A stretch of DNA of 64,000 nt from Naegleria gruberi (lineage: Eukaryota). Numbering within the stretch: the stretch's first letter is position 1; every line of letters begins with the position of its first letter. Where the stretch lies: NCBI GenBank assembly GCA_000004985.1, contig GG738868.1. One strand, written 5' to 3'. Under the pieces are notes generated by a model. The model saw nothing but the letters and a program-made list of their open reading frames with translations, was not told where the DNA came from and searched no databases. Made by a program: the position numbers and the translations under genes. Shown in pieces: positions 3,721 to 60,184 of the stretch.

Positions 3721-3791
3721 TGCATTAGCCGGGAGTCGAACCCGGGTCACCAGCTTGGAAGGCTGGTATGATACCGTTACACTACTAATGC
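3721..3791 (-). tRNA. tRNA-Gly (anticodon UCC)
   Basis: Reverse complement is GCATTAGTAGTGTAACGGTATCATACCAGCCTTCCAAGCTGGTGACCCGGGTTCGACTCCCGGCTAATGCA. Perfect 7-bp acceptor stem GCATTAG/CTAATGC. Anticodon stem CCAGC/GCTGG with loop CTTCCAA (anticodon TCC). T-stem CCGGG/CCCGG with TTCGACT loop. Near-identical to canonical eukaryotic tRNA-Gly-TCC. Confidence 0.9.
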
Positions 3792-7816: not shown

Positions 7817-7877
7817 GGCGACATAGCTCAGTTGGGAGAGCGTAAGACTGAAGATCTTAAGATCCCTGGTGTCGGCA
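7817..7877 (+). pseudogene. tRNA-Phe(GAA)-like sequence with precise deletion of the T-loop and 3' T-stem (truncated tRNA or tRNA pseudogene)
   Basis: GGCGACATAGCTCAGTTGGGAGAGCGTAAGACTGAAGATCTTAAGATCCCTGGTGTCGGCA. Canonical D-arm and anticodon arm (loop CTGAAGA, anticodon GAA). After the 5' T-stem CCTGG the sequence jumps directly to the 3' acceptor strand TGTCGGC+A; about 12 nt (TTCGATCCCGGG-like) are missing relative to canonical eukaryotic tRNA-Phe. The acceptor stem has one G.G mismatch. Confidence 0.6.
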
Positions 7878-23661: not shown

Positions 23662-23835
23662 GCCTCTCAATATTCCTCTTCCAAATCTTTCACATTTCGT
23701 CCTTTCCAACACTCATCTAATGACTCACAATAATTATTGTAAATTCAATCTCTGCATAATTCAATACATAATACTCCTTGTACTTTTTTCGAAAAAATCG
23801 TTCGGAATAAAAAATTGAAAGGAAAATTAAAAAAA

Positions 23836-24871
23836 ATGCCATCATATAAAACACAGTACAGTGGTTACTCTGTCGAGTTTTCTCCATTCGAAGATGATAA
23901 ATTGGGTGTTGCTACAAGTCAACATTTTGGAATTGCCGGACAAGGTAGACAATATGTTTTACAAAATGATCGTGATTCGCAAACTATGAAAAAATTACAT
24001 ACTTTTGATAGTGCTGATGGATTGTATGATTGTACTTGGAATGAAGAAAATGAAAATCAAATTATTAGTTGTTCGGGAGATGGAAGTATAAAAGTTTTTG
24101 ATACCACAACTGCTTCGGGAGGTGAGGGAGCTCCTGTGATGAATTTTGCTGAACATTCTAAGGAAGTTTACTCTGTAGATTATAATACTGTGAATAAGGA
24201 TTGTTTTGTTAGTGGTTCTTGGGATAATACTATCAAGTTGTGGAATTTGAGTGGTGGTAATGGTAGTTCAATGGAAACTTTTGATGAACATCGTTATTGT
24301 GTATATTCTACAATTTTTTCTCCGATTAATGGTGATCACTTTATGAGTTGCAGTGGTGATATGACCATGAAAATTTGGGATATTCATGATATTTCTAGTT
24401 TACAATCAGCTCAAGTTCACAATTATGAAGTTTTGGCATGTGATTGGAATAAGTTTAATGAACATATTGTTTGTACAGGATCAGTAGATAAAACCATCAA
24501 AGTATGGGATTTGAGAAATTTAAATCAGCATAGATCAGGAGCTATCATGGGTAGTGGATCATCTTCAAATCAAGATTCATCAATTTGTACTTTAACTGGA
24601 CATGGATTTGCTATTAGACGTCTCAAATTCTCACCACACGATGAAAATATAATTGGTAGTGTAAGCTATGACATGTCATTGTGTATTTGGGATACTGAAC
24701 AGGGAAGTGATAATGCACTGTTGGAAAAATACGAACACCACTCTGAATTTGTTGTTGGTATTGATTTTAACTTGGAAATGGAGGATGAAATTGCTAGTTG
24801 CAGTTGGGATGAAACTGTCTATGTTTGGATGAGAGGAGAAGAACCAGTTCCAACACACGAAGAAGATGAAA
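23836..24871 (+). CDS. PEX7: Peroxisomal targeting signal 2 receptor PEX7 (WD40), 3' end truncated by assembly gap
   Basis: ATG at 23836 (MPSYKTQYSGYSVEFSPFEDDKLGVATSQHFGIAGQGRQYVL..), the typical PEX7 N-terminus. Six WD40 blades (..SGSWDNTIKLWNL.., ..CSGDMTMKIWDIH.., ..GSVDKTIKVWDLRNL.., ..SCSWDETVYVW). The ORF runs into N's at 24872. Confidence 0.85.
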
Positions 24872-24921
24872 NNNNNNNNNNNNNNNNNNNNNNNNNNNNN
24901 NNNNNNNNNNNNNNNNNNNNN
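24872..24921. other. Assembly gap (50 N) between convergent genes PEX7 (+) and the 24934..26328 (-) gene
   Basis: A run of 50 'n' characters. Confidence 0.95.
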
Positions 24922-24933
24922 AATCTTTTCTTT

Positions 24934-26328
24934 TTACATGAACTCTTCCATATTCTCCTTATTTTCTTGTTGGAAACTCATATAATAGGGCAACCAATTT
25001 TTCAGAATTGCTATTACTTGTTGGTTTGAGGTATCAAAGATACCACTCGAAACATAATCTATCAAAACTGCAGCTAAGAAAAACCCAGATCCCAACAATT
25101 TTGAACCATCACCCCAATGAAGAAATTTTACCTTCAAATCCCCTTCTTTTGTTAAAAATCCATCCAAATCGTAAATTTTAAGTAACAATTCACCAAACAC
25201 TGATCTAATGTCTCTAATGAGAGAATAATTTCCCTTTTCATCTTGAAATAAATCTCCAACATATGTCAAATCTTTATCTACCAATGCTCTAATATCTGAA
25301 TCGCTTAAATGTAAGCCATACACTAATGCATCATGGACTTTTTTGTTTTTTTTTTGTTGAGTTGTGTTATGTATTGACACTCCTACAGAACTCTTCTTAT
25401 ATGCCCTTTTTTTTCTATCTTTAAATAGAGTTTTCAAATCAAATTGTTTCTCATCTCCATATACAATTGAAACAAAATATCCTCCTTTAGTTGACAACAG
25501 ACATTTCTTGATTTTAGGATCATCAATTTTTTGAGAAACAGAGCGAGCTATTTCAGACTTATTCAATTTTAGAAATTCAGTTTCTCCACTTTCTAATTTT
25601 TCATCAATTGTTTCAACAATTAACTTTTTCAATTCAGTGGTAAAATAATTGGGAACTCGTTTGAATTCAGGTTTTTCGTGTAGTTTTCGTTCCTTGTATT
25701 GCTCTACTGTTTCCAACTCAATACCTTTCCGTAACTTTTCTTGCCCATTTTGAGGAAGATATAATCCTCTATTCCTTTTAGAATAACCTAAAGTTTCATC
25801 TTTTAAATATTGTTGTTGAGATTTTGCACCTTCCATTCTTGAATTATTTAATTGCTTATTCCATTCCTCTACGGATAGAACAACATAATTTTCATCAGAT
25901 TTTAAAATTGAAATCATCTGATCACGAAGTCCTTTTTCCTCAATGAATTTCCAAAGTTTTTCACAAATAGCCAATTTACCATTTACTGAATATTCCGAAA
26001 GCTTTGATGTTCCATTACATAATTTCACATGATTTTTAATTGGCCATCCTTCAATAATATACACAGAATTTTCATTCTTGCTAAAAGTGATGTTGTGATT
26101 GTCATATCTTTCATGTATCATGGTTAAATGATGTGAATTATTTAAATTATTATTGTTCAGTTCCGAAACACACTTTCCGTGTGTGCTGGCAAAATTGGCT
26201 GATGATACATATACATCATGTAAAGAACAATGTCTCAACAAGCTTTTTCCACAGTTACATTTATTTTTACCGATAAGAAACTCACTATGATTAATATCCA
26301 CACTACAACGATATGATGGTCTGTTCAT
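24934..26328 (-). CDS. Hypothetical 464-aa protein (Cys/His-containing N-terminal region; Lys-rich); function unknown
   Basis: ATG at 26328. Stop at 24936-24934, immediately next to the gap. No family recognised. Confidence 0.45.
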   Translation of the reverse strand: MNRPSYRCSVDINHSEFLIGKNKCNCGKSLLRHCSLHDVYVSSANFASTHGKCVSELNNNNLNNSHHLTMIHERYDNHNITFSKNENSVYIIEGWPIKNHVKLCNGTSKLSEYSVNGKLAICEKLWKFIEEKGLRDQMISILKSDENYVVLSVEEWNKQLNNSRMEGAKSQQQYLKDETLGYSKRNRGLYLPQNGQEKLRKGIELETVEQYKERKLHEKPEFKRVPNYFTTELKKLIVETIDEKLESGETEFLKLNKSEIARSVSQKIDDPKIKKCLLSTKGGYFVSIVYGDEKQFDLKTLFKDRKKRAYKKSSVGVSIHNTTQQKKNKKVHDALVYGLHLSDSDIRALVDKDLTYVGDLFQDEKGNYSLIRDIRSVFGELLLKIYDLDGFLTKEGDLKVKFLHWGDGSKLLGSGFFLAAVLIDYVSSGIFDTSNQQVIAILKNWLPYYMSFQQENKENMEEFM

Positions 26329-29718: not shown

Positions 29719-32700
29719 TTATTGTTTATTGAGTTTTACTTGTAGTTCAAGTTCTTTAATTCTTTGTAAAAGTTGATAATTTTCCTCAATTATTTGACTC
29801 TTTTCATTCATTGTTTGAGTGTTTTCTTCTAGTATTTGATTGTAGCTCTTCAAAGGTGCAACTGTTCTATATTCTTTCATACTTGTTTCAATATCTTTGA
29901 TAGTTATGTTTTTACCTTGTAAATGTTGAACAATATCAGAAAGAATTGTTTTGTGAGTCCAACAATTCAATCTTTTAGAGGAATCTCTTTGAATCATTGT
30001 AATTATGAATCTAATTAATAGAGTATTGACATTAAAACTTGAATCAATAGTTCTATTGATCAATTTGTCAATAGCATAATGTAATTTAGTTTCTCCTTCA
30101 ACAGTTGTTACAACTGAAAAGAAATGTTTACCATATCCAGTAAAATACTGATAGTTCTCATCATATTTCTTAATTTCAGAATCGCTAATAAATTGTTGAT
30201 CCAATTGTAAAGAGCAATTTGTTAATATTTTCAATAGAATACATCCTAATGAAAACAAATCGCACTGAACTGTAATTTTACCAACATTTTGAGCTAGTTT
30301 TTCGTCATCATTTTGTTTTAACAATTCATCACTATAATTATCATATGAAACTTCAGGTGGCATGTATGAGGCCTTGCCTCGTGCAATAGTGATTGAATGA
30401 CCTGTCTTGATTACTTTAGCAGTGTCAAAATCAATGATTTTGTACTTGTCTTTCACCTTAACTATATTCTTTGGATCTAAATCTCTATGAGAAATGTTAT
30501 GGTCATGAATTGATTTTACAGAATCTAAAATTTTGATAAATATACTAAGGAATTCAATAAGTTTTTCTCTTGTTATATTTGCAGAATTTTGGTAGAGTGT
30601 TACATTTCTATTAATATAATCTAATAGGGTTTCTTCTCCTAATTCCATTACTGAGTACATGTAATTATCAATTAGTTCACATTCGTAACATATAATTTTC
30701 CCCTCAATATCATTTCTTTTAATAAATTGAACTCTTTCAAGAGATGATTTCTGATCGAATTCTTTATCAAATTTAACTTTAACAGCAACCAATTCTTTTC
30801 TAATTCTATCAAACCCTTTGAATGCAACTCCTTCTCCTCCATATCCTAAAACTGATAATAAATGAAATTTCTTATTGAAAAACGAGTAGTACTGATCTAT
30901 AATTTTGATTATTTTTGAAGAATCTCCAAATAGTTCATTATATTTTGTTAATGTTTTCTTGTAGTTGTCAAATGAAGAGCTGTTTTCAGTCCAACGAGAG
31001 AAAAAGTACAATATCATTTCTACATCTTTTGCTGAATAATATGATGTCTCGAATATGGATGAAATACTATCAACTTGCTTTCTCAGATTTGAAATAGGGG
31101 TTGGAATAATCTCACTTTCATTTTCTTCCAAAAATCTAGTTAATAATAAGCAAAACAGATGATAGTCAACTGATTCAAAAGTAGAAGCTTTGGTAAATGG
31201 ATGTTTTGATACTATATTTTTCACAATTTGCAAAATAATTAACTTGGTTATGAAATCAGCAGAGTATTTGGCACTAAATAACTTGAGAATTGGTTTTGGA
31301 AAAGTTTCATGTAAATCCAAGCAATAAAATAAATAACTTTCATCACAATACTTGTTTGAATACATTCCAACAATGTCCTTAGAAAGCTTTGTAGTCATTG
31401 GATCATTAGATTTTTCAATAAAATTAAATAACAAAGAGTTGATTTGATTAGCTCTTGTGGGATTAGTTTTTGTAAGTAAGTGGAAGAATGTTGTATCTGA
31501 AAGTAAGTGTGTATCTATGAAATCAATTGCAGTTGGGGTTTGTTTAACAGCTTCTAAAATTATATCCCTATCTTGAAGTAATGACTCGTCAATAAATAAA
31601 TACAGTTCACCATCTTGTTTCAAAGCTTCCAATACTATTTCTCTGTCTTTTGTTAATGTTTCGTCTGCATAGTAGAATGCTGTGCTATTTTGTTTTACAG
31701 CTTCCAACACGATTTTTCTATCCTTCCTCAATGAATCATCGGCATATCTAAGTACTTCTCCATTTTGTTTAACAGCTTCCATTACAATTTGCTTATCCCT
31801 TCTCAATGATTCATCAACTTGCTCAAGAGTATTTCCATTTTGTTTAACAGCCGCCAACGCAATTTGCTTATCTTTTTTAAAGGACTCATCTGTTGAAATT
31901 ACATCGCCATTCAATTTAACAGCTTCTAACACAAATTTTCTATCCTTCCTCAATGAATCATCTGCATATCTAAGTGCGTAGCCATTTTGTTTAATAGCTT
32001 CCAATACTAATTCTCTATCCCTTTTGAATGATTCATTGGCATAGTCAAGTGCGTAGCCATTTTGTTTAACTGCCTTCAAGACAATATCTCTGGTTTGTTC
32101 AAAGTTTGAAAAGGCGAAGTTTGTAAATAGCCTTAAAGCTTCTCCATTAGATTCAATTGCTTCCAAAATAAAGTCTGTGTTATATTTAAGCGAATCATCA
32201 ATAAAATCAAGAGCTTTTACATTTTTCTTTGTGGCCTCCAACACAATTTCTCTATTTTTAAAAAGTGAATGGTTTGTGTTTTTGAAAGGTAATCCATTTC
32301 GAATAGCTTGGATAACAATTTCTCTATCAATATTCATGGAAATATCAGATAGTTTAACACCATCTTGCTTGATAGCATTCAATTCAATTTCCTTTTTCAA
32401 TTTTTCAGCAATGGTAATATAGGCCAGGCCGTTTTGTTTAACAGCTTCCAATATAAACTGTCTATCACTTCTAAATGAACTATCTGCAAGTCTAAGTGCA
32501 CAGCCATTTTGTTTAATAGCTTCCCTAACAATTTCAATGTCTTGTTTGAATGATGCATCTATATACGGCAATGCTTCACCATTTAATTTCACAGCTTCCA
32601 ATACGAATGCTCTGTCTTTCTTAAATGACGAATCAGCATGACTGAATGCACTTCCCTTTTGTTTAATTGCCATCAGTACTATATTTCTATCGTTTTTAAA

Positions 32701-33048
32701 TGAATTGTCAGCAAACTGTAATGCAGTGCCATCCTGCTTAATGGCTGCCAACACAATTCTTCTGTCTCTTTTAAGAGTTTCGTCTGCAATCTCTAGTATT
32801 TGGCCATAGTTTTGTTTGATGGCTTCCAAAACTAAACCTCTATCTTTCCACAGTGATGGATCGGCATAAGATAATGTGTGACCATGTTTTTTAACTGACG
32901 CCATCACAATTTCTCGATTCGCCTTTAATGAAGAATGTGCATATAAAAGTGAGAGCGAACAATCTTGTTTAATACCTTGTAAAATGTATTTTTTATCTTT
33001 TTGCAACTTTTCATCGTTCATAAGTGATGAAACATCATACTCTTTCAT
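29719..33048 (-). CDS. Giant DUF4116-repeat protein (about 25 tandem ~36-aa repeats) fused to a C-terminal Ser/Thr protein kinase domain
   Basis: ATG at 33048. Repeats of the form ..DR.IVLEAVKQNG.AL.YADDSLRKDR.. across residues ~20-520. Kinase domain with LGYGGEGVAF (Gly loop), VAVKVK (VAIK), HRDLDPKNIV (catalytic loop), IIDFDTAKV (DFG variant), SYMPPE (APE-like). C-terminal coiled coil. Confidence 0.75.
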   Translation of the reverse strand: MKEYDVSSLMNDEKLQKDKKYILQGIKQDCSLSLLYAHSSLKANREIVMASVKKHGHTLSYADPSLWKDRGLVLEAIKQNYGQILEIADETLKRDRRIVLAAIKQDGTALQFADNSFKNDRNIVLMAIKQKGSAFSHADSSFKKDRAFVLEAVKLNGEALPYIDASFKQDIEIVREAIKQNGCALRLADSSFRSDRQFILEAVKQNGLAYITIAEKLKKEIELNAIKQDGVKLSDISMNIDREIVIQAIRNGLPFKNTNHSLFKNREIVLEATKKNVKALDFIDDSLKYNTDFILEAIESNGEALRLFTNFAFSNFEQTRDIVLKAVKQNGYALDYANESFKRDRELVLEAIKQNGYALRYADDSLRKDRKFVLEAVKLNGDVISTDESFKKDKQIALAAVKQNGNTLEQVDESLRRDKQIVMEAVKQNGEVLRYADDSLRKDRKIVLEAVKQNSTAFYYADETLTKDREIVLEALKQDGELYLFIDESLLQDRDIILEAVKQTPTAIDFIDTHLLSDTTFFHLLTKTNPTRANQINSLLFNFIEKSNDPMTTKLSKDIVGMYSNKYCDESYLFYCLDLHETFPKPILKLFSAKYSADFITKLIILQIVKNIVSKHPFTKASTFESVDYHLFCLLLTRFLEENESEIIPTPISNLRKQVDSISSIFETSYYSAKDVEMILYFFSRWTENSSSFDNYKKTLTKYNELFGDSSKIIKIIDQYYSFFNKKFHLLSVLGYGGEGVAFKGFDRIRKELVAVKVKFDKEFDQKSSLERVQFIKRNDIEGKIICYECELIDNYMYSVMELGEETLLDYINRNVTLYQNSANITREKLIEFLSIFIKILDSVKSIHDHNISHRDLDPKNIVKVKDKYKIIDFDTAKVIKTGHSITIARGKASYMPPEVSYDNYSDELLKQNDDEKLAQNVGKITVQCDLFSLGCILLKILTNCSLQLDQQFISDSEIKKYDENYQYFTGYGKHFFSVVTTVEGETKLHYAIDKLINRTIDSSFNVNTLLIRFIITMIQRDSSKRLNCWTHKTILSDIVQHLQGKNITIKDIETSMKEYRTVAPLKSYNQILEENTQTMNEKSQIIEENYQLLQRIKELELQVKLNKQ
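31490..32990 (-). repeat. Tandem array of ~108-nt coding repeats (DUF4116 units) inside the 29719..33048 gene
   Basis: The reverse-strand ORF 31682..31981 shows a periodic shadow translation (..FCLTASNT.FLSFLNESS..). The protein shows ~36-aa periodicity over ~500 residues. Confidence 0.6.
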
Positions 33049-40023: not shown

Positions 40024-41248
40024 ATGAACGACACATACGAAGAACAAGTGGATGAAGTTGGTATCAGTGGTGGTGGAGGAGGTGTTGGTGGATCATCAGC
40101 CTCCAATCAACATCGTTATTATAGTGCAGGAGATTTAATGGATGAAAAATCAAAGAAACGAGTTTCTAGAGGTTTTATTGCCATTGCTGCTTTTGTTATT
40201 TTGGTAATTGCTTTGGGATTGTTAGCCTTGTTGATTTTGTCGATTGCTTTATATTGGACACGAGCAAACAAACACTTATATCCGAATCCCGAATATTCAC
40301 AGAGTACAGATTATATGCATTTTGTAGTTGTAGGCGACCAGGGAAGAGGAAATGATGCACAAAAAACTGTTGCTGCCTCTATGGGAAAATATTGTGAATC
40401 AAGTGCAAGTATTGGCAAAGCATGTCAATTCGTTATTGGTGTTGGAGATAATATTTATGATAATGGTGTCACTGATATGTATGATCAACAATTTAAGACC
40501 AAGTTTGAAGATATTTATGGAACTATTGATGGTTTGAAGGATTTGAAATGGTACATGATGCTTGGTAATCATGGTATGTAACTTGTTAATTAATGAGATA
40601 TTAACTGAGTTTTTAGATTATAGATTGAATCCTGAAGCTCAAATTCAATATTCTCAAATTAATCCACGTTGGATTATGCCAGATTATTTCTATTCATTTG
40701 AAAAGATATCAACTCAAGGAGGATTCAATGTTTCATTTGTTGTGACTGACACTAATCCATTCGTTAAGAGTTATTTCTCTAAATCAGTAATGAATCAAAC
40801 TGCTTTAAATAATAGAAAGGTCAATAATACCGATCAATTAACCATGATTGAAAGTATCATGGAAAAGAATTACAAGAATCCAAACAAATGGACTTTAGTT
40901 TTCGGTCATCATCCTGTATACTCAACTGGTGTTCACTATGATACTCCTGAACTTTTGGCAAGTTATGAACCAATTTTTGATAGATATAAATTACCACTTT
41001 ACATGAGTGGTCATGACCATTTATTGAACTGGCTCTCCAATCCAAAACTTCCATACACTCAATATGTAATTTCTGGTGGAGGTGCTGGTAATACCAAACC
41101 AATTTTGTACAATGCAAATTCCTTGAACGAGTGGAATGATTCTGGATTTTTCTCAATTGAAATTCAATATTCTTTCATATTCGCCAGAGCTTTTGATAAG
41201 AATGGAAAGGAATTGTGGAAATTTAGAATTGACAAACCAACTTATTAA
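40024..41248 (+). CDS. Tartrate-resistant/purple acid phosphatase (ACP5-like metallophosphoesterase) with N-terminal membrane anchor, 2 exons: 40024..40573 and 40617..41248 (43-nt intron GTATGT...TTTTTAG)
   Basis: ..HFVVVGDQGRGND..CQFVIGVGDNIYDNGVTDMYDQQFKTKFEDIYG..LKWYMMLGNH|DYRLNPEAQIQYSQINPRWIMPDYFYSF..VSFVVTDTNPF..WTLVFGHHPVYSTGVHYDTPEL..LPLYMSGHDHLLNW.. aligns with human ACP5 metal-ligand motifs (GDWG, GDNFY, GNHD, GHxP, GHDH). The N-terminus has a TM helix (FIAIAAFVILVIALGLLALLILSIALYW). Confidence 0.8.
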
Positions 41249-41857: not shown

Positions 41858-43879
41858 TTATTCCACTTTTTCTTTTTGTTTGAAAAGAGAAATTATTGAG
41901 GTTCCAACCAAGACAGTCCAAGTTGGAATCATGACAACACAGAAACTGATATAGAATAGGTTTTGAGGTAGGTCAGTAATTGTGAAAAACCATTCGAGTT
42001 GACTTGAAATAGCTTCTCCAAAATAGTGTTGTCTTACAAGAATATTTACAATAATCAAATTGAATGGACAAGCTGCAAGTAAGGATACAAGCTGAACAAG
42101 CTTGGCAATAATGTTAGTTGGAAAAACTGTTGTCAAAATGCACAAAATTGATAAATAAGAGGAAAGGAAAATACACAAGGCACTCGAATAAATCATGATT
42201 GCTCCTACCATAATTCCAGAAAAAGCAATAGAAAGAGATTTGGCATATCTCCAATGGATTGGATTTGGTTTAGCTTTGAATAAATACTCGTAAATTCTAT
42301 TAACAACTGGGTAGAACAAAGTGAGAGAAGAAAGTACCAAAATTACAACTATTGAGATCCAATAAGTGGCAAATTGTTGCGAATCAAGAGCCAAATGACG
42401 AAGAGTATCCTTCAATATAATTGGTGTCAAATAAATTAAAACTCCATTAGCAAAATTAGAAATAACAAAAATGACTGCATGAGCAAGTTCTTTTTCGGAT
42501 GCAGTACTGGCATAGTAGTTTCCAATAAATTGAATAGCCAAACAACCAAGGAACATTAATAAGTTTGGTAAATAATGTTCAAATCCATAATAATGTTGTG
42601 AATCAGTAACATAGTACAAAAAGAACGATTGATGCAACTCTTCAATAAGGTTGTTCAAGCTTCTTATACTAATTTCCATAATTCTTCCCATCATGTAATA
42701 GGTATGCATGACACCAATTTTTGTAGTGTGCTGAGTAACAGAGTTAGTCAAAGTAATTGCATGAGTTAATTGTTGTCTGAACCAGGCATGTGGGCCAGTT
42801 GGGATGGAAATCAATTGATTATACCAATGGTTCAATACAATAACACTTCGTTCCATAAAAGAGTTTGGCAAATCAATTCCAAATGATCTAATCATTTCCA
42901 AAAATGCATGATGTAAATAGATAAATGCTGGTACATGATCCTTATAGTTTGGATACTGTTGCATGGTGGCATCAACATTTGGTGTTGCAGTCAGGTCAGC
43001 TTTAAAGAAAGTAGGAAGACCACCACGACCCATATTATAATGACTTTCACTCAATAAACCAGTCACAACATTGACCATGTCAAGATTTGGAAGTTCTCCA
43101 TTGACACCTTCAGTAAGAACAGCAACTTGTTGAAAATCAAATGATTCCAAATCCAAAGTAATGGCCTCTCTCATTCTACCAGTAGGAATAGCAGCAGATT
43201 TGATAAAAGCTTCTTCACCAGCCCAATTATGTTCATATCCATCACTAATAACCAAAATAATATCATGATTAAGCCATTTAACTCTTGAAATATATTTCAA
43301 CAATGCCAACGAGAAGGCCAAACTTTCAGATTTAAAATATGGAACTGTCAATATAATAGATTCCTTTCCATTACCTCTTCCTGGTCTAATAGCAATATAT
43401 AAATTTTCACCTCTCACATTTTCAATCCTATTAATATATCTTCTTTCAACACTATACTCATGTCTCTTCATTTCACTATAAAAAGGAATACTCTCAGAAT
43501 TTAAATAACTTTCAACAGCACTATAAGTTTGATTTCTAAAATCCAACTTGGCTGATCTACTATCCAATGTTTTTAATTGATTCAAAATTGAAACTCCATA
43601 ATCAGCATCTTGTTGATTAAATTCTGGTGTATGAAAAAACACAGAGAGAGCATTCTCCGAATAATAAATGTTTTTCGTAACGAAGGGCCAACATAAAAAC
43701 CATCCAATGGCTCCGATAAATAATAAATAGGAAACAATATTAAAGTATTTAAATAGGTGAAGAATAACTCTTCTCATCATGGGAACTTGTGTTGTATTGT
43801 TATTATTTTCATCAACATTAGGATCTCTTTCATGATCACCACGAGCGATCACTTCCTTCTCTTCGTCTATTTGTTCCAT
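41858..43879 (-). CDS. GPAA1: GPI transamidase component GAA1 (GPAA1)
   Basis: ATG at 43879. Conserved blocks YYSENALSVFF.. (human YMSENAMGS), GENLYIAIRPGRGNGKESIILTVPY ([25 protein letters not shown]), NGELPNLDMVNVV (NGQLPNLDLLNLF), LIEELHQSFFLYYV (LLERLHQSFFLYLL). N-terminal TM helix plus multi-TM C-terminal region. Confidence 0.88.
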   Translation of the reverse strand: MEQIDEEKEVIARGDHERDPNVDENNNNTTQVPMMRRVILHLFKYFNIVSYLLFIGAIGWFLCWPFVTKNIYYSENALSVFFHTPEFNQQDADYGVSILNQLKTLDSRSAKLDFRNQTYSAVESYLNSESIPFYSEMKRHEYSVERRYINRIENVRGENLYIAIRPGRGNGKESIILTVPYFKSESLAFSLALLKYISRVKWLNHDIILVISDGYEHNWAGEEAFIKSAAIPTGRMREAITLDLESFDFQQVAVLTEGVNGELPNLDMVNVVTGLLSESHYNMGRGGLPTFFKADLTATPNVDATMQQYPNYKDHVPAFIYLHHAFLEMIRSFGIDLPNSFMERSVIVLNHWYNQLISIPTGPHAWFRQQLTHAITLTNSVTQHTTKIGVMHTYYMMGRIMEISIRSLNNLIEELHQSFFLYYVTDSQHYYGFEHYLPNLLMFLGCLAIQFIGNYYASTASEKELAHAVIFVISNFANGVLIYLTPIILKDTLRHLALDSQQFATYWISIVVILVLSSLTLFYPVVNRIYEYLFKAKPNPIHWRYAKSLSIAFSGIMVGAIMIYSSALCIFLSSYLSILCILTTVFPTNIIAKLVQLVSLLAACPFNLIIVNILVRQHYFGEAISSQLEWFFTITDLPQNLFYISFCVVMIPTWTVLVGTSIISLFKQKEKVE

Positions 43880-51502: not shown

Positions 51503-54500
51503 CTAATCAGAGTCTGTACTTGCATCTCCATAATCATCTTCCTCTTCAACCTTCATAGTTTCTTCTTCCTCAGGATCACTATCACCATTGTCATCAATAT
51601 TGTCTTCCTCCTCTTCTTCATTCTCCTCATCACTGTCAAAATCAACTCTTTTTTTAGCCTTATAATTAATCAGAGAAGGATTCATTGAAGAGGTATATCC
51701 AAAACAGAATACTTGAAAACCACCAACTCCATTCAACAACATTTGAGTTTTTTCACAAATTTCCAATTCACACCATCCTCTTTCAGCTGCCTCCTTCTTT
51801 GTTGGAGTTGGATTTTTCTTTCCTGGATTGGCACTAACTGTGAGTAAGGTTTCCTTTCTCAATTGATTTTCTGGTTCTTCCCAAAAGTCATCTGAGCTAA
51901 TTGGTAAAATACCTTCCATAGAAGGTAAGAAATAAGTATTCACAGCAGAAGTCAAATAGGAAATAGTATGGGTTGGTCTCTTGAGATTATGAATCTTGTT
52001 TTTCAAACTATCATTCACTTGATAGTTCCACATAGCTACTCTTCCAATATGTTTCTTATTGTCAAATATGGATTCCAACTGTTCAACCAAAAATCTTGCA
52101 ATTTGAATGTCAGGATTGTTGAGTTGAATTTCTTTCAATAATTCAATAAATTGTTGAGGATTGTGAATTATTAATTTAAGAGTTGATTCTGAGGATACTT
52201 CATTAGTAATTTCTGTTATTCTACTATTATACTTTTTTCTTGATGGACCTTTGATCGATTTGATATATTCATCCAAAATGTCCAACAAGTGAAATCGTCC
52301 ATTTCCCAATTCTTCAATGATTTGATCAGTCAAATTGTATTTTAACTTGAGTATTTTCAAGCAATTAGCTGCAAACTCCGGTTCCAGTAGAATTTCTTTC
52401 AACTTTGCAAATCTAACCCTAGAAACGTTTGGATTAAATAGCTCAGTATGTAAAACTTTTTCCATAAATTGTAAACTTCTGAGCATTGATGTTTCATGTG
52501 AAACAAACAATTTTTGTTGTCTACTATATTCATAAAATTCTAAAATGTCATCTTGAATAATATGAATGCATTCAAGTTTAAGAAATTGACCAATTGCCAA
52601 AATTGAGGAATGAACAATGCCAGGTCCAAGAGGCATATTAGATTCCAAAACAATAAAATTGTAGTCATCCACTCTATTTCCATTAGATATAATCCATTTC
52701 TTATATCTATTGATATATTTTGATTCTGTTACAATGGTTACACAATTTGGAATTGAATCTGAATGCAGCTTCTTCACGAAATTAGAATAGAGATAAGGTT
52801 TCCAAAATTTTCCTCTTGGTCTTGATTTGATAAATAGAGGTTTCAATCCATCACTAGTGAGCGTTGAAATCTGTTTCAGTTTAGTCAAAAAGCTTTCTTC
52901 ATTATAGGAAATTTCTAGAATTTCATCATCTCTATTAAACTTGACCAATATTTCGTTATCATTCGAATAGTTTCTATCCATTACTTTAACAGGAATTGTG
53001 TATCTATCTCTCTTCTCGAATTTGAATTTCAACAAGGCATCGTTATGTGAGCAAAATGATTTTTGTTTTTCTTGCTTTTTTGCTTTCTTCTTTTCCTTCT
53101 TCTTCTTTTCCTTCTTTTCAGGGACAGGAGGTCTTAAATCAGTTACACTTTCAGATTCTTTATCTGGAAGATCTAATTTACATTCTTCCAATCTTTGTGG
53201 GAATGGATATTTGTCTTCAATGATTACCTCACCAATTGATGATTTCTTATTTTGGTACTTTGTCAATAGTTGTTTAACATTTTTGTGTAAACCAAAACTC
53301 AATTCTTCCCATGATTGGACAGTTTCCTCAAATTGAACACTAAAATCATGTTCAAAATCTTCCACTGCTTGCACAATATCTAGAATTATCTTTTCCTTTG
53401 ATTTGTCCTTTTCCTCAAAATTTGGATTCAAAGAATAGCACAAAGACTGGACCCACTCTAATGGAATGATAGTATCACTTCTCAGGTATGATTCTTGCAA
53501 AATAGATGTTAATTTGGCTTGGAATCTTTTAGTAAGAGTGTTGAAACAACTTAAAAAGCTCTCTAATTTTAAAAAAAACCCACTGTTAAAATACCCAAAG
53601 CATTGCTTCCACCTCTTGATTCTCTGTGGTACTTTCAATTGGTTTAGTTTCTTTTGTTTTGTTTTTTTCAATTCAGGTACAATTTCTTTCCTTTGAAAAC
53701 CTAATACAATAGGATTGGTGTAATAGGATGAAAACTTCTTTACGAAAGAATCTATTGTCTTTTCTTTTAAGGCATCCACATCAGGTATATTTTCTTTCAA
53801 TCCATCAATAACACTTTGCAATTTCTTCTGAATTTTCTGGATACATGACTTCAATTCTTTCACGAACTTTAATGGAAACTTTTGTACTTTCTTAATAGTT
53901 GTATTAGACAGTACAACAATAGCCATGTCTCTTAATTGACTAATATTGTTTGATATAATCTTTTTTCTATTGTTTTCAATAATTGATTGTAAATTGGAAA
54001 CAAAGTGATCTCTCATTTCAACGTTGTTAGGTGGTGGAAAACAAACTAAATCAAAATTATCATATAATCCCTTTACAAAATCATACTTGTTTTCCATATC
54101 AATTTCATTGGTATTGATATTATTGGCTTCTAATTCCAAGTCGAAAGGGACATCATCTAGCTCACAATCGAAATGAAAAGCAAGTTGCTTTCCATATGAT
54201 TCTTTCATGGGTTTGAAAACGTTTTTTGTCATAACCTCATTCTTGTAGCTCTCCTCATTCATTACCTTATTATTAGCTAAGATTGCAATGTAAGGTTGAT
54301 GGGTTTGTTGTGGTTGATGGATACCATAATCCCACACCTTTTGTACAATACCATCATCAAGAATGATCCTTTCATTTTCAATACCACACAATAACAAGCA
54401 GGTGTCATATAAACTTTCTCTTATCAAATGCTTGTAGGATACATTTTCATGGACATTTACTGGATCAGTAGTTTGCTTTTCATCATATCCAGGCATATCT

Positions 54501-55243
54501 CTGAGAATTATTTTGCTCCTTTGAAGGAACTTGGAAGGGATTTTCAAGATTAACTTCTTAATATGGACTTTCTTAAAGTTGGTGTCAGCATCAAACTCTA
54601 AAATCTTGTTACGTGCTTTAGTGGCCAGAAATTCATAAAGTTCCTCTTCAGAATTTCCATTGTCAATAATATAATTTGATTGATTGTCAATTTCACAATC
54701 TTTCAAAGTATCAGTAGCAAGTTGTTCAACTTTCCTTGCACACAACTCTTGTTGTGAACAATACTGAACAGTCAAACTGTAAGTTGGTGAATACTCAACA
54801 TCAACAACTGTACGTGTCAAACCCTTTCCAAACTGAACAGCAGAAGGAAGAGGAGCATTAGTCATTTTGAAATCAGACAACAATTGATCAATGATGAAGG
54901 ATTTACCATATCCTGGCTTACAAAACAGGGTAACCACAACTTTGCCCCGAAAATCCTTGATGATTCCCTCCATAGACTCTAAATGTTCAGAACACATTGT
55001 CCTAATGGATCCCTTCTTATTGGAACCGTTTAAATGTTCCTTGTAGAATGTTTTAACCTTATCAAAATCCTCAGTTTCTGTCTTCATTTGTTTATCCTCC
55101 TGCTGTTCATTGCCATTCTCTGGTGATGGGTCCATTTTGATTTTCTTGGGTGCTTGTTCTGTAGATGATGAAGCAGTTGCAGCAGCAGCAGCAGTAGCAG
55201 TAGTAGCACTCGGAGAGTGAGTAATCTTTCTCTTTCGAAGCAT
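51503..55243 (-). CDS. Large (1246 aa) P-loop NTPase-domain protein, possibly dynamin/IRG-like GTPase; acidic C-terminus, Lys-rich internal stretch
   Basis: ATG at 55243. P-loop VVVTLFCKPGYGKSFIIDQLL; about 130 aa downstream KIILRDMPGYDEKQ (DxPG, resembling the dynamin-superfamily G3 DLPG). K-rich [20 protein letters not shown]-terminal EEEEEDNIDDNGDSDPEEEE. Shares the P-loop...DMPG arrangement with the adjacent 55848..57146 gene. Confidence 0.5.
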   Translation of the reverse strand: MLRKRKITHSPSATTATAAAAATASSSTEQAPKKIKMDPSPENGNEQQEDKQMKTETEDFDKVKTFYKEHLNGSNKKGSIRTMCSEHLESMEGIIKDFRGKVVVTLFCKPGYGKSFIIDQLLSDFKMTNAPLPSAVQFGKGLTRTVVDVEYSPTYSLTVQYCSQQELCARKVEQLATDTLKDCEIDNQSNYIIDNGNSEEELYEFLATKARNKILEFDADTNFKKVHIKKLILKIPSKFLQRSKIILRDMPGYDEKQTTDPVNVHENVSYKHLIRESLYDTCLLLCGIENERIILDDGIVQKVWDYGIHQPQQTHQPYIAILANNKVMNEESYKNEVMTKNVFKPMKESYGKQLAFHFDCELDDVPFDLELEANNINTNEIDMENKYDFVKGLYDNFDLVCFPPPNNVEMRDHFVSNLQSIIENNRKKIISNNISQLRDMAIVVLSNTTIKKVQKFPLKFVKELKSCIQKIQKKLQSVIDGLKENIPDVDALKEKTIDSFVKKFSSYYTNPIVLGFQRKEIVPELKKTKQKKLNQLKVPQRIKRWKQCFGYFNSGFFLKLESFLSCFNTLTKRFQAKLTSILQESYLRSDTIIPLEWVQSLCYSLNPNFEEKDKSKEKIILDIVQAVEDFEHDFSVQFEETVQSWEELSFGLHKNVKQLLTKYQNKKSSIGEVIIEDKYPFPQRLEECKLDLPDKESESVTDLRPPVPEKKEKKKKEKKKAKKQEKQKSFCSHNDALLKFKFEKRDRYTIPVKVMDRNYSNDNEILVKFNRDDEILEISYNEESFLTKLKQISTLTSDGLKPLFIKSRPRGKFWKPYLYSNFVKKLHSDSIPNCVTIVTESKYINRYKKWIISNGNRVDDYNFIVLESNMPLGPGIVHSSILAIGQFLKLECIHIIQDDILEFYEYSRQQKLFVSHETSMLRSLQFMEKVLHTELFNPNVSRVRFAKLKEILLEPEFAANCLKILKLKYNLTDQIIEELGNGRFHLLDILDEYIKSIKGPSRKKYNSRITEITNEVSSESTLKLIIHNPQQFIELLKEIQLNNPDIQIARFLVEQLESIFDNKKHIGRVAMWNYQVNDSLKNKIHNLKRPTHTISYLTSAVNTYFLPSMEGILPISSDDFWEEPENQLRKETLLTVSANPGKKNPTPTKKEAAERGWCELEICEKTQMLLNGVGGFQVFCFGYTSSMNPSLINYKAKKRVDFDSDEENEEEEEDNIDDNGDSDPEEEETMKVEEEDDYGDASTDSD

Positions 55244-55847: not shown

Positions 55848-57146
55848 TTAATCATGAGACTTTTCATAATTATTATTTTTCTTAATAATTTGAATGGTAC
55901 TAGTTTGGGCCGAGGAAATTTTAGCATGTGCTACCTCAACCAACTTCAAAAGTAATTTCAAATGCATGTATTCGAAAATCTTGACAATTTCCTCATTTTT
56001 ACATTGGAATTTGGAAATGAATGGAATTGGATAGTCAGCAGAAACGATATTCTCAAAGTTTCCATCGCCCGTCTCTAAAATATCCCATTCATAGAACAAT
56101 TTCAATACATTGGCTTTGGTGATTTCAATTGGAACTTCATCTTGAGTTCTCATATCAAGTATTGGAACACTCTTCTCAATGTAATCTCTGAAAATGGAAT
56201 GGCCATCAATTTTAGAGTAGCAATAAATGCACGAGGTGGAGAATTCAGAGGAAATATAGGATGGAATCGATGTATAATAGTCAAGCATGGTTTCCTTAGT
56301 TTTAGATTCTGTTGAGAACATGGTTGGATTGTTAATAGGAATTGGAACAAACACAGCATGAGGAGCATCAAATTCTTGTGCAACTTGTTCAAAAACTGTC
56401 TTGAATAAATATTCAGAAAATTCAAACTTCTCAATGAGTTGCTTTTCGTTATCGAATTTGAAAAATCCTGGCATATCTTGAAGATAGATCTTTTCAAATT
56501 TTTCGACATCATCAATTGGGATCTTGGATACATCCTTAGTGAATGAATTGAGATAGTCTTTGGACGGATTTTTAGCATCAGAGAGGATCTTGTAGGCCAT
56601 TTCCATGAAACTTGCACTACCTTCCTTAAATGGAACTCGTTTTGATTTGAGTGTTTTAAGAATTCTATTCAAGATGGTTGATTTTCCACCAGATGCAATG
56701 GAGACACCAGCCAAAGTGATTTGATTATCACCAATCATCTCCAATTGAGTAATAATCTGTTCCTTCAGCATTTCACAATTAAAATCAATGTGTAACAGTT
56801 CTGTTGTTTCCTTTTTGAGAGATTGTACCATTACATTTTCAACTGAGTGAACTACTATTCCATCCAAAGTTTCAATTCTTGCATTGAACAGAATATTTTC
56901 TGGAACAATAATAGAACATCTAGCTTCCTTGGTTTCTTGATCATAACCATCTCCTGCCACAAAGAGCTTTTTTACAATTTTCTTATCGAGATAGCTTACA
57001 ACTACTTTGAAAGCTGTGTGGGCAGTTTCATTCACGATAGTGTTAAACTTGAATTGAAATATAACCTTGGCTAATCTGGTAATATGATGTGAAGGGTTGA
57101 ATCTTGGTGGTGTAACTTTGGTTTCGGCTGAGTATTGGTTTCCCAT
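55848..57146 (-). CDS. N-myristoylated P-loop NTPase, possibly IRG/dynamin-like GTPase (432 aa); paralogous to the N-terminal domain of the 51503..55243 protein
   Basis: MGNQYSAE.. (G2/S6 myristoylation consensus). P-loop ITLAGVSIASGGKSTILNRIL; ~80 aa later KIYLQDMPGFFKFDNEKQ. The promoter contains two AAACGTG motifs (57191-57195, 57228-57232). Confidence 0.5.
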   Translation of the reverse strand: MGNQYSAETKVTPPRFNPSHHITRLAKVIFQFKFNTIVNETAHTAFKVVVSYLDKKIVKKLFVAGDGYDQETKEARCSIIVPENILFNARIETLDGIVVHSVENVMVQSLKKETTELLHIDFNCEMLKEQIITQLEMIGDNQITLAGVSIASGGKSTILNRILKTLKSKRVPFKEGSASFMEMAYKILSDAKNPSKDYLNSFTKDVSKIPIDDVEKFEKIYLQDMPGFFKFDNEKQLIEKFEFSEYLFKTVFEQVAQEFDAPHAVFVPIPINNPTMFSTESKTKETMLDYYTSIPSYISSEFSTSCIYCYSKIDGHSIFRDYIEKSVPILDMRTQDEVPIEITKANVLKLFYEWDILETGDGNFENIVSADYPIPFISKFQCKNEEIVKIFEYMHLKLLLKLVEVAHAKISSAQTSTIQIIKKNNNYEKSHD

Positions 57147-57368
57147 CTTGTATTTTTTTAATGTTTTGAGTTTTGTTTTTGAATGTCAAAACGTGTTGCT
57201 ATTTAAATGAAAATCATGATATTCGAAACGTGAAGTGCTTCTGATTGGATGGTGGTTGTAAACTTCAATACGAAATGGATTCCTTCTTATTCAATGCAAA
57301 TTTAAAAATACTTTCACGTTTGATTAAATTTGAAAATATATTAAGGGAAAAACTGTAGATATATCAGC

Positions 57369-57500
57369 TTACTAAGCAGAACAAGCTTGGCATTAATGTT
57401 AGTTGGAAAAACTTTTGTCAATTTGCTCAAAATTGATAAATAAGAGGAAAGGAAAATACACAAAGCACTCGAATAAATCATGATTGCTCCTACCATAATT
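57369..57500. repeat. ~130-nt duplicated fragment of the GPAA1 coding sequence (copy of 42085..42216) in intergenic DNA; about 95% identical
   Basis: 57379-57497 agcagaacaagcttggcattaatgttagttggaaaaacttttgtcaatttgctcaaaattgataaataagaggaaaggaaaatacacaaagcactcgaataaatcatgattgctcctaccataatt versus 42091-42218 agctgaacaagcttggcaataatgttagttggaaaaactgttgtcaaaatgcacaaaattgataaataagaggaaaggaaaatacacaaggcactcgaataaatcatgattgctcctaccataatt. Same orientation; about 6 substitutions. Confidence 0.8.
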
Positions 57501-57526
57501 TTATTGATATTAAATAGTTAATTTTT

Positions 57527-58261
57527 TTATTGAGATGATTGCCTTAATATTTCATTTGCCTTATTTGAAATTTCATAATCTCCAAATCCTTTAATTGCTA
57601 TATATGGAAAATCAGAAGAAATACCATATTTAACTAGCAATATATCAGCTCCATTTGCATGTTCGCTATTTAGTTTTTTCGCACTTCTTGTTGGTTCAAA
57701 AGCAATTTGTCTCATTTTGACCTTTTTTTTAAGTTCACTTATCTTGAAAATCGTTTGAATTTTCTCATCCAATTTGGAATGATTGCAATTATATCCCAAA
57801 TAATACAAATTCTTAATTACTATTGATTCAGTTTCCCTCATAGCTTCGTTTACAGGTGTTTCTTGCGTTTTCTCTACATTCTTCTGATTTTCTTCATCAT
57901 CAGTTTCCTTTCCATGTGTTTCACCATTTTTCTTGACATTCTTCAATTTAGATTCGTCCACATATTCCTGAATTGGTACAATAGCAGCAGAACTTGTCGA
58001 ATGATCAACGCTCATCGTATTATAGTTGGTATTTTGATTTTCCTTATTGAATTCTTTTGATTCTTCATCCACTTGACTAGGATTTCTACACAATTTACCA
58101 ACTACAAGTGCAGGTTGATTGAAAACCAACAATGCCATCAACATCATTTGTAAATAAACAATATATGGAAGTAAGCCAACCAATAAGAAACCCAAAAAGA
58201 AGGCAACAAGTACATTTCGTTGATCCAAACATGTCTGAAAAAGATAGAGTGGTAGAAACAT
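57527..58261 (-). CDS. Membrane-anchored protein with conserved C-terminal domain (paralog A of an inverted pair); function unknown
   Basis: ATG at 58261. N-terminal TM helices (VLVAFFLGFLLVGLLPYIVYL..). C-terminal ~100 aa (..IVIKNLYYLGYNCNHSKLDEKIQTIFKISELKKKVKMRQIAFEPTRSAKKLNSEHANGADILLVKYG..PYIAIKGFGDYEISNKANEILRQS) about 75% identical to the 58650..59339 product. Confidence 0.5.
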   Translation of the reverse strand: MFLPLYLFQTCLDQRNVLVAFFLGFLLVGLLPYIVYLQMMLMALLVFNQPALVVGKLCRNPSQVDEESKEFNKENQNTNYNTMSVDHSTSSAAIVPIQEYVDESKLKNVKKNGETHGKETDDEENQKNVEKTQETPVNEAMRETESIVIKNLYYLGYNCNHSKLDEKIQTIFKISELKKKVKMRQIAFEPTRSAKKLNSEHANGADILLVKYGISSDFPYIAIKGFGDYEISNKANEILRQSSQ

Positions 58262-58522
58262 GATCTATTGTAAGTTAAAGAGAAATAATGAACTGGCCTT
58301 CTCATTGAGAAGAATTTGCTTGAATAATTTCCATTTTCCAGTTTCTGATGTTTCGTCGGCCATAGAATCGGCCCTTTTCACAAAACACAACATGATTGGG
58401 AAGAGATTGGCCAATAAACAAAGTAGGAAATGTGAGAAACCATATTGTTGAGTGGTTCTGAAGGAAAGTGTCTCAAGTTTCGTATAGGTCATCATACGAG
58501 AATATAACTTTAATTTTTTTCA

Positions 58523-58640
58523 ATACCTCTCTTCCAAACGTGATTCAAATATTTTGATTTATTTTCATACCTTTCTTCCAAACGTGATTTTGAAAAACGT
58601 GTAAGTTTACAATCCACCAGTATTCGAAACGTGATTCACT
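58523..58640. promoter_or_regulatory. Shared bidirectional promoter region of the inverted paralog pair containing four AAACGTG(A/T) motifs and a 23-nt direct repeat
   Basis: ACGTG cores at 58538-42, 58582-86, 58597-601 and 58629-33. Direct repeat atacctctcttccaaacgtgatt / atacctttcttccaaacgtgatt (58523-45 and 58568-90). attcgaaacgtga also occurs at 57221-57233 upstream of the 55848..57146 gene. Confidence 0.3.
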
Positions 58641-58649
58641 TTAAAAAAA

Positions 58650-59339
58650 ATGCTCAAATTTATTAGTGGAGTTGTTTGTGGAAGTGGAATTACAACACTA
58701 GCCCAGTTCTATGTATCGTCAACCAAATTAGAGAGTCCACCAGGCAGTGAAATTTCACAAGTTGAACCTTTACATGTTGTGATGAATGATTCAACTCCAT
58801 CACCCAGTCATTCATTGGCAATTCCAAGTACGGATTCATCTCTAAATGTTATAGGATTGACTTTGGGAGGAAATTTTGTTTTGATTTGGGTGGTGTTGTG
58901 GGAAGTGGGTAAAATCTTATTTGGTAAGAAGAACGAGAAAAGGGAAATGAGAAAGGAAGAAGCTCAACAAGACGAAACAACAAAACTGAATAATTCTGAA
59001 GGAAAAATTGAAACTGAATCAAGTATCATTAAGAATTTGTATTATTTGGGATATAATTGCAATCATTCCAAATTGGATGAGAAAATTCAACAGATTCTCA
59101 ATACTAATCAACTTGAAAAAAAGGTCAAAATGAGACAAATTGCTTTTGAATCAACGAGAAGTTTGAAAAAGCCAACAAGTGAACATGCGAATGGAGCTGA
59201 TATATTGCTAATTCCTTCTGGAGATTGTCTTTTTATGGATATTCCATATATAGCAATGAAAGGATTTGGAGAATATGAAATTTCAAATAAGGCTATTGAA
59301 TTATTGAAACAATCTGTACAAATAAATTCAAATTATTGA
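58650..59339 (+). CDS. Membrane-anchored protein with conserved C-terminal domain (paralog B, divergently transcribed from paralog A)
   Basis: ATG at 58650. N-terminal hydrophobic segments. C-terminal ..IIKNLYYLGYNCNHSKLDEKIQQILNTNQLEKKVKMRQIAFESTRSLKKPTSEHANGADILLIPSG..PYIAMKGFGEYEISNKAIELLKQS. Confidence 0.5.
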   Translation: MLKFISGVVCGSGITTLAQFYVSSTKLESPPGSEISQVEPLHVVMNDSTPSPSHSLAIPSTDSSLNVIGLTLGGNFVLIWVVLWEVGKILFGKKNEKREMRKEEAQQDETTKLNNSEGKIETESSIIKNLYYLGYNCNHSKLDEKIQQILNTNQLEKKVKMRQIAFESTRSLKKPTSEHANGADILLIPSGDCLFMDIPYIAMKGFGEYEISNKAIELLKQSVQINSNY

Positions 59340-60184
59340 AGATTATTCTGGGATGAACACAAAAAACGAGTAAAGCATGTTAATGGTGGAAGATTGATGA
59401 TGGAAATGGCTTTATATAATAAGGATGAGGTATTAAGCCATTTTTTGATATTGTTCAACAGTAATAGTTTTCTCTCGTTTATCGGAGCCGGACAGATATT
59501 AATGTCATTGAATTTTATTAAGGATTCCCACATGAAAACACTAACTCATGTTAATTGCTGACTGCTGACGAATATATCAGCAGGTTCCATCATCACATGG
59601 ACATTCACATAAGAACATGTCGTATTAATTGATGATACAACCAGTGAAGTGTTATGGTTGTTAGACGTAAAAAAGATTAACATAGAAAATTCATCTTCTT
59701 TATCTTCTAATTGAATTCATTCTTTGAATATTATTCATATTGGTTTGTTGTATTCTTTGCATGGTCTGATTATGTGTACGAATATTATTCATATGAGTTC
59801 TATGATTACTTTCATTGGTTCTTCTGATGGTTTCATTGGTTCTCCTGATAGTTTCTTGGGTTATTTAATTACTTTGAGAGAACAGCCAAGTCACAAAGCA
59901 TGGACACAACAAACCAGGTGCTTTTGGAACTTGTGACACTATTCATCAAACTTTAATTTGAGTGAGTTACTAAACTTTATCTTCACATTTATCGGAAACA
60001 GTGCAACCAACCAAACAATTGGATTTGTGCAAGTATTGTAAAGTGCGTATCCAAAACCAAGTTGACCAATAGAAGGACAACCAGGTTCTTCCGATGTTAC
60101 AATCACTAGTTTTGAAGATTACATTTCGCGACTCATAAATCGCCTTCAAAGCTGAATAAGGGAAAATTGTTTCTTTCAAAAAAA

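Follow-up and report, generated by a model that had tools for sequence, protein, structure and literature searches.

A short fragment of GPAA1 in an intergenic spacer of Naegleria gruberi, a candidate patch copied in cis during break repair

Introduction

How does a piece of coding sequence from a conserved gene come to lie, alone, in the spacer between two genes of other families? The question is raised by 64,000 nt of contig GG738868.1 from the genome of Naegleria gruberi strain NEG-M (assembly GCA_000004985.1), a stretch referred to here as the window. A sequence-only reading of the window had noticed that 125-130 nt in intergenic DNA repeat part of the GPAA1 gene some 15 kb away, and had listed segmental duplication, retro-insertion, repair-mediated insertion and gene conversion as possible origins. 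From this list the insertion of a DNA patch during repair proves the best fit, whereas segmental duplication, gene conversion and LINE-type retro-insertion agree poorly with what is found. Break repair is the route by which the fragment most likely reached its present site. The evidence for the duplication, its direction and its age is set out below, followed by the marks that a templating process may have left and by the other explanations that have to be weighed.

Identity and limits of the duplicated segment

BLASTN aligns 57374-57500 with 42089-42215 in plus/plus orientation and with 0 gaps, 120 of the 127 positions being identical (94.5%). A repeat search of the window returns the same pair as a two-copy direct family (42089-42215 / 57374-57500, 127 nt, 94%). 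The match has E = 6e-53 when the spacer is the query and E = 1e-50 in the whole-window self-comparison. The 380-bp spacer, 57147-57526, has no second significant match in the window (BLASTN, word size 7), everything else lying at E >= 0.02. A tblastn search of the window with the GPAA1 protein gives, beyond the gene itself, a sole extra match, that of residues 556-601 at 57499-57362. These three methods confirm the original observation of a GPAA1 fragment duplicated ~15 kb off, in the same orientation and at ~95% identity.

The limits first given for it, 57369 or 57374 to 57500 for the copy and 42085-42218 for the source, described a genuine repeat but were a few bases too wide. The self-comparison that had been proposed as a check places them at 57374-57500 and 42089-42215, and finds a single copy besides the source in the window. 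The edges are abrupt, since past 57374 and 57500 the copy and source loci are unrelated both in the alignment and by BLASTN. Source and copy are 15.3 kb apart on the same chromosome and in the same orientation. As had been stated, the remainder of GPAA1 is missing at the copy site (tblastn, tblastx). The sole N-run of the window, at 24872-24921, is far from both copies.

The seven differences lie at 57378, 57393, 57414, 57422, 57423, 57427 and 57464, and in every case the base of the source is replaced in the copy by A or T. The change from A to T at 57393 makes a perfect 8-nt palindrome, CATTAATG (57390-57397), that is absent from GPAA1.

The source gene and the direction of copying

The donor gene, GPAA1 or Gaa1, encodes a subunit of the GPI-anchor transamidase. 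It is a single-exon ORF of 673 aa on the minus strand at 41858..43879, matching Pfam PF04114 over its whole length with E = 4.5e-48, and the N. gruberi predicted protein P0001 is 100% identical to it from end to end. The derivation of the fragment from GPAA1 coding sequence thus holds good. Adjacent ORFs in the window are exact N. gruberi proteins as well (D2VFP1, D2VFP2 and D2VFP4). The source segment IMVGAIMIYSSALCIFLSSYLSILCILTTVFPTNIIAKLVQL (42089..42215, minus strand), delimited by BLASTN and the repeat search, comprises GPAA1 codons ~556-598 and belongs to the C-terminal transmembrane region. Because GPAA1 is one continuous ORF, the ends of the fragment match no exon borders.

As read from the sequences, the direction of copying is from GPAA1 to the spacer. 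An alignment shows the segment to be colinear in the Gaa1 proteins of five heteroloboseans, namely N. fowleri, N. lovaniensis, an environmental Naegleria, Willaertia and Acrasis. Since it is an integral and colinear part of Gaa1 in these organisms, the copying went from GPAA1, as donor, into the spacer. The substitutions point the same way. One position is occupied by Gln in all four of the orthologues that cover the site, these being the full-length ones, and by Leu in the copy. Where polarity is readable, at this Gln site and at hydrophobic positions of the helix, GPAA1 carries the ancestral state and the copy the derived one.

Setting of the copy

The copy (57374..57500, 127 nt, minus strand) lies inside the spacer 57147-57526. 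It was correctly described as intergenic and as flanked by two genes unrelated to GPAA1, both of which share their strand with GPAA1. The upstream neighbour is a 244-aa ORF (57527..58261, minus strand) without a Pfam domain, whose annotated form, the 205-aa protein P0124, begins at an internal Met. The copy follows the stop codon of this ORF at a distance of 26 nt and therefore sits in, or just past, the 3' UTR of the gene. The downstream neighbour is an orphan gene for a 432-aa protein, D2VFP2 (55848..57146, minus strand), also with no Pfam domain; the distance from the copy to its ATG is 228 nt.

The orphan protein has itself as the sole match in a homology search of 5.8 billion proteins. 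Its start, MGNQYS, resembles an N-myristoylation signal, and a P-loop-like motif, SGGKST, is found inside it. The gene beside it on the far side, encoding 1246 aa (51503..55243), is likewise without Pfam domains, and comparison of the 432-aa and 1246-aa proteins reveals no significant similarity.

Splicing of the copy to either neighbour was considered and rejected. Were a GTAAGC donor at 57372 spliced to the AG that precedes the ATG of the 432-aa gene, the product would be out of frame, and that gene has its own MGNQYS start; in the 244-aa gene there is no donor ahead of the stop codon.

A patch of DNA copied in cis

The reading to which we lean, with moderate confidence, is that break repair or replicative template switching produced the fragment as a DNA patch, with GPAA1 as the template in cis. 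The trigger would have been a double-strand break or a collapsed fork in the spacer between the 244-aa and 432-aa genes. The broken 3' end would then have invaded, or annealed at, GPAA1, and ~127 nt of the gene would have been copied as DNA in a short burst of templated synthesis. On dissociation, the copied end would have been rejoined to the other end of the break, leaving the insert in the same orientation as its source. The pathway may have been of the MMBIR type, SDSA with a template switch, or an end joining of the polymerase-theta kind.

Several features of the site are consistent with such a course. The inserted block is discrete and its flanks show zero similarity to those of the source, the junctions being those of the filled site in this assembly. 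The hallmarks of mobile elements are absent. No direct repeat that could be a target-site duplication is present at the borders of the copy, whether the flanks are read by eye or 57000-57900 is searched for repeats. Neither an A-run or poly(A) at either end nor a LINE endonuclease target is seen in the flanks. Read in the sense direction, the copy ends in ...GTTCTGCTT, which passes directly into AGTAAGCTGATAT with no A-run and no duplicated flank.

The distance between source and copy carries weight too. The N. gruberi genome is ~41 Mb in size, and on this figure a fragment captured at random would have its source in the same 64-kb window in ~0.16% of cases. Proximity in cis therefore favours a process that is DNA-templated and proximity-dependent, with an ascertainment bias in that the search was confined to this window. 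At 127 bp the insert falls inside the 73-414 bp range of experimental templated sequence insertions (PMC5110952). N. gruberi is listed in a phylogeny of DNA-PKcs (PMC8021618), a slight indication that machinery for end joining is present in this organism.

A contig from a related Naegleria (L001 of an ENA assembly, 96-98% identical) covers 57675-59391 and 60027-61396 and so ends 175 bp short of the copy. JGI metagenomes gave 0 matches with a pattern for the conserved flank and 0 with a codon-degenerate pattern for the fragment.

The template might instead have been RNA, with GPAA1 mRNA or cDNA filling a break, as in class-2 insertions, or with a LINE-type reverse transcriptase making the insertion. 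What was copied is solely coding, and hence transcribed, sequence, and its size fits the templated sequence insertions, which are reported to be RNA-derived (PMC5110952). As GPAA1 is intronless, the loss of introns cannot separate an RNA or cDNA template from a DNA one. The fragment is, however, internal to the mRNA, and a source 15 kb away in cis is not predicted for a diffusible RNA. The LINE version has in addition to do without poly(A), a target-site duplication or a target of the TTTT/A type. An RNA template is accordingly an unlikely alternative to DNA copied in cis, if the first to be considered.

Possible scars of template switching

Two local features of the copy may be traces of the synthesis proposed above. 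The first is a palindrome at the left junction, TCAGCTTA-C-TAAGC(A)GA (57364..57380), centred on 57372. The junction now reads TCAGCTTA-C-TAAGCAGA and matches at 7/8 positions. Restoring the T of the source at 57378, the state at insertion, gives an 8/8 palindrome centred on the border. Palindromes of 8/8 are found at 6 of 63,960 positions in the window, and a 7/8 palindrome within 4 nt of an arbitrary position has P = 0.024. The 8/8 form is what would be expected if the copied 3' end had snapped back by 7-8 nt before it was rejoined. The palindrome, which was noticed post hoc, is thus a possible scar of snap-back (fold-back) synthesis, and TCAGCTTAC at the insertion site may be either target DNA or a product of that synthesis.

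The same border is abutted by one half of an exact 11-nt direct repeat, ATATATCAGCT, at 57359-57369, the other half lying in the coding sequence of the 244-aa gene at 57640-57650. This repeat was judged to be at chance level (rough post hoc P ~0.1), though it could be a second short templated patch.

The second feature is a near-perfect hairpin, found by repeat search and folding, that exists in the copy only (57414..57440, with arms at 57414-57424 and 57430-57440 and a 5-nt loop at 57425-57429). Ten of its 11 pairs are Watson-Crick and the other is G.T, as against 7/11 in the source. A stretch of 14 nt contains four of the seven substitutions, and those at 57414, 57422 and 57423 each add one pair to the hairpin. 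In simulations, seven random substitutions placed on the source reach such a hairpin with P = 0.002-0.003, and a comparable hairpin is present in 4 of 501 window segments.

The correction of quasi-palindromes through template switching is a known mutational process (PMC5453318, PMC8794818) whose frequency rises strongly in break-repair synthesis (bioRxiv 10.1101/2023.08.09.552703). The synthesis that accompanies break repair is highly mutagenic and prone to template switches at quasi-palindromes and microhomologies (bioRxiv 10.1101/2023.08.09.552703; PMC5453318, PMC8794818). The clustering of substitutions that perfect the hairpin, again a post hoc observation, hints at errors of this kind, made either during the copying synthesis or later. 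A single template switch cannot explain the whole cluster, because the mismatch at 57417 in the middle of an arm was left uncorrected; nor is the loop of the hairpin inverted. Such a switch gives a clean account of the AA>TT double change at most.

The adjacent inverted repeat

The GPAA1 copy had been called the only obvious dispersed repeat in the window, which proved wrong. Directly adjoining it is an inverted repeat of 305 nt and 85% identity (57537-57835, with its partner at 59010-59314), detected both by the repeat search and in the BLASTN self-comparison. It is the only other non-tandem repeat in that comparison, in which tandem repeats at 31.5-32.9 kb also appear.

The two arms encode a C-terminal domain of ~100 aa that is shared by the 244-aa gene and a 229-aa gene (58650..59339, plus strand). 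The domain has no Pfam match and is carried by three entries in 5.8 billion proteins, all of them N. gruberi-like. Within the shared block dS is 0.28 and dN 0.15, and the N-terminal halves of the two proteins are unrelated or saturated. By the evidence of its sequence, the inverted repeat is the partial duplication of a gene fragment that created a new gene. Homology between the arms dwindles near the stop codon, which leaves 25-35 nt to the GPAA1 copy.

A single event that made both the GPAA1 copy and the inverted duplication was considered and is disfavoured by dS values of 0.28 and ~0.055, respectively, although the counts are small. Since the arms of the inverted repeat are several-fold more diverged, the GPAA1 insertion is probably the later of the two.

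A locus with such a history of partial duplication, in which the inverted repeat stops so close to the copy, is one where the fragment might be what trimming has left of a larger segmental duplication around GPAA1, or the result of gene conversion acting on a related sequence already in place. That the copies share orientation and chromosome would suit a remnant. A block of 94.5% identity beside flanks of zero similarity demands, however, that deletions fell exactly at both edges. Moreover, BLASTN, tblastn and tblastx detect no other trace of 38-47 kb within 55.2-60.2 kb, and the adjacent repeat belongs to an older event. Gene conversion, for its part, has to start from homology that is already present, of which the flanks show none. 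We therefore doubt both versions, and a cis-templated patch accounts better for edges that are sharp on both sides.

The related strain differs from N. gruberi farther along. In L001 (ENA ERZ929261) an unrelated 91 nt (L001:1751-1841) stand in place of the 635 nt that follow the 229-aa gene at 59392-60026, the sequence on either side being 96-98% identical. With this the locus has a second indel of the replacement type in a 3' flank.

State of the copy

It had been said that the copy has no flanking ORF. The copy in fact retains the GPAA1 frame as an ORF of 51 aa (57341..57496, minus strand), which starts at the internal Met557 of GPAA1 and shares its frame with the 244-aa ORF upstream, two TAA stops lying between them. 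The ORF is unannotated, and its exact sequence does not occur in a collection of 15 billion proteins. A search of a representative protein library gave one match, to an unrelated repetitive protein. The ORF is not considered a gene.

The substitutions have the character of neutral decay. By the method of Nei and Gojobori dN is 0.059 and dS 0.053, with 5.5 non-synonymous and 1.5 synonymous changes and a dN/dS of ~1.1, seven changes giving low power. Six of the seven differences alter an amino acid, among them two in a membrane helix that introduce Lys, in place of Ile and of Thr, as well as the Gln to Leu noted above. With dN/dS at ~1, neutral drift is indicated. The copy shows neither the purifying selection of a functional coding paralogue nor, as an exon would, membership in a gene model, again within the low power of seven substitutions. 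As a structured non-coding RNA it is equally unremarkable: Rfam finds nothing in the region of the copy, and fold energies compared with those of shuffled controls give z-scores of +0.27 to +1.64 over both strands, none of them significant. Judged by its sequence, the copy looks like a neutral, decaying and non-coding relic.

The suggestion that the copy is a functional element has been weighed in several forms: a micro-gene or latent C-terminal membrane tail of the 244-aa gene, an element of a 3' UTR or promoter, or a source of small RNAs directed at GPAA1. The 51-aa ORF is intact, begins with ATG and keeps the frame of the ORF upstream; the hairpin was perfected by three substitutions, and its retained G.T pair would be G.U in RNA from the plus strand; and an AATAAA follows the upstream stop codon at ~30 nt or less from the copy. 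Set against these points are the dN/dS of ~1 and the lysines put into a helix, the two stops that separate the ORF from the upstream gene, its absence from annotation and protein collection, and fold z-scores without significance. Read-through from the flanking genes would, moreover, yield RNA that is sense, not antisense, to GPAA1. A present function is for these reasons improbable.

It is a still more speculative and very improbable proposition that the GPAA1 piece serves as raw material for exaptation, or that the hairpin is a newly selected RNA element or small-RNA source which ties the locus to GPAA1 expression. The piece encodes ~1.5 membrane helices and lies in frame 10 codons past the stop of the lineage-specific 244-aa gene. 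If exaptation were true, the loss of two TAA codons would give the 244-aa protein a C-terminal membrane anchor.

Transposons of the Pack-MULE, Helitron or MITE-like kind might have captured and carried the fragment, such capture being a known route by which gene fragments move, and an imperfect 12-nt inverted repeat (57338-57349 / 57539-57550) does bracket the copy. This repeat is at chance level, 19 such pairs being found per 900 nt, and its right arm lies inside conserved coding sequence common to the paralogue. As the copy lacks a target-site duplication, has no transposase near it and is the only one in the window besides its source, transport by a transposon is highly improbable. Least credible of all is an artefact of assembly by a chimeric read or mis-join, for although the draft has gaps (N 24872-24921) and L001, ending at 57675, provides no independent contig over the copy, there are no Ns and no discontinuity near it, and an artefact would be identical or differ at the allelic level where the copy has seven differences (5.5%) with a decay-like spectrum.

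Other features of the window

The tandem repeats seen in the self-comparison belong to a diverged array at 31534-32915 with a period of 75 nt (25 codons), contained in an ORF of 1109 aa (29719..33048, minus strand). A tRNA-Gly(TCC), found by both Rfam and ARAGORN, is listed together with a weaker tRNA at 3721-3791 (minus strand) and 7817-7877 (plus strand). The second tRNA match (39 bits in Rfam) has no counterpart among the ARAGORN calls and could be degenerate or unusual. The ORFs at 40024..40581 and 40562..41248 (plus strand) look like two exons of one metallophosphatase-like gene (40024-41248), with a GNH motif at their junction and a short intron or frameshift between them. The gap of 50 Ns at 24872-24921 falls where the ORFs 23815..25029 (plus strand) and 24934..26328 (minus strand) overlap, so that gene models at this place are unreliable.

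Significance

The GPAA1 fragment is an ordinary event of a kind already known, and a single insertion into a compact protist genome, small and apparently neutral, matters little alone. Its interest lies in being what appears to be a clean and datable short patch of cis-templated DNA in a heterolobosean, carrying two possible scars of template switching. As such it suggests that break repair by templated synthesis shapes the intergenic DNA of Naegleria as it does that of animals, plants and yeast. Genetic tools for Naegleria are limited, and a genome-wide census of such fragments, recording the distance from source to copy and the presence of junction palindromes, would be a cheap readout of its repair pathways. 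For annotators, the message is that neither the 51-aa ORF nor the GPAA1-like match at the copy is a gene.

Comparison with known systems

The copy resembles the products of Pack-MULE and Helitron capture in that a gene fragment has been relocated, but the structures that define these transposons, and MITEs as well, are absent here: the inverted repeats are at chance level and the window holds a single copy. LINE-mediated class-1 insertions and retrocopies carry a target-site duplication and a 3' poly(A) past a polyadenylation signal, and the copy has neither. Nor do its flanks contain the diverged homology to the source that a segmental duplication would leave, the similarity being restricted to the 127-nt block.

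In plants and yeast, filler DNA, NUMTs and Ty cDNA are captured at end-joining junctions. The yeast cases are summarised in PMC5110952. The likeness is that unrelated cellular DNA plugs a break; the difference is that the coding DNA used as filler at this locus is nuclear and single-copy and comes from the same chromosome.

Class-2 templated sequence insertions are patches of 73-414 bp at breaks, with neither target-site duplication nor poly(A) (Onozawa & Aplan, PMC5110952), and among described categories they come nearest to the copy. The copy is like them in being a short, non-repetitive sequence, templated elsewhere and placed at an unrelated site, and it agrees with them in size and in its freedom from LINE marks. 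It is unlike them in other respects. The sources in human and experimental cases are distant, apparently random and proposed to act via RNA, whereas this source lies in cis at a distance of 15 kb. The host, too, differs, being a heterolobosean amoeboflagellate.

The cluster of changes that improves the inverted repeat 57414-57424 / 57430-57440 recalls the short template-switch mutations of quasi-palindromes. It departs from them in the uncorrected 57417 and in the loop, which is not inverted, so that a single switch explains part of it.

FoSTeS/MMBIR and snap-back synthesis by polymerase theta are associated with copying from nearby sequence in cis, short palindromic additions at junctions and clustered errors. 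MMBIR usually operates on a scale of kilobases to megabases, and theta-mediated inserts are usually shorter than 30-50 nt. The 127 nt of the GPAA1 copy fall between these usual sizes, and any enzyme involved is a putative one. The cis source is shared with these processes, and the palindrome at the junction and the clustered substitutions may be further points of likeness. In this one feature, a source nearby in cis, the copy comes closer to FoSTeS/MMBIR than to the class-2 cases.
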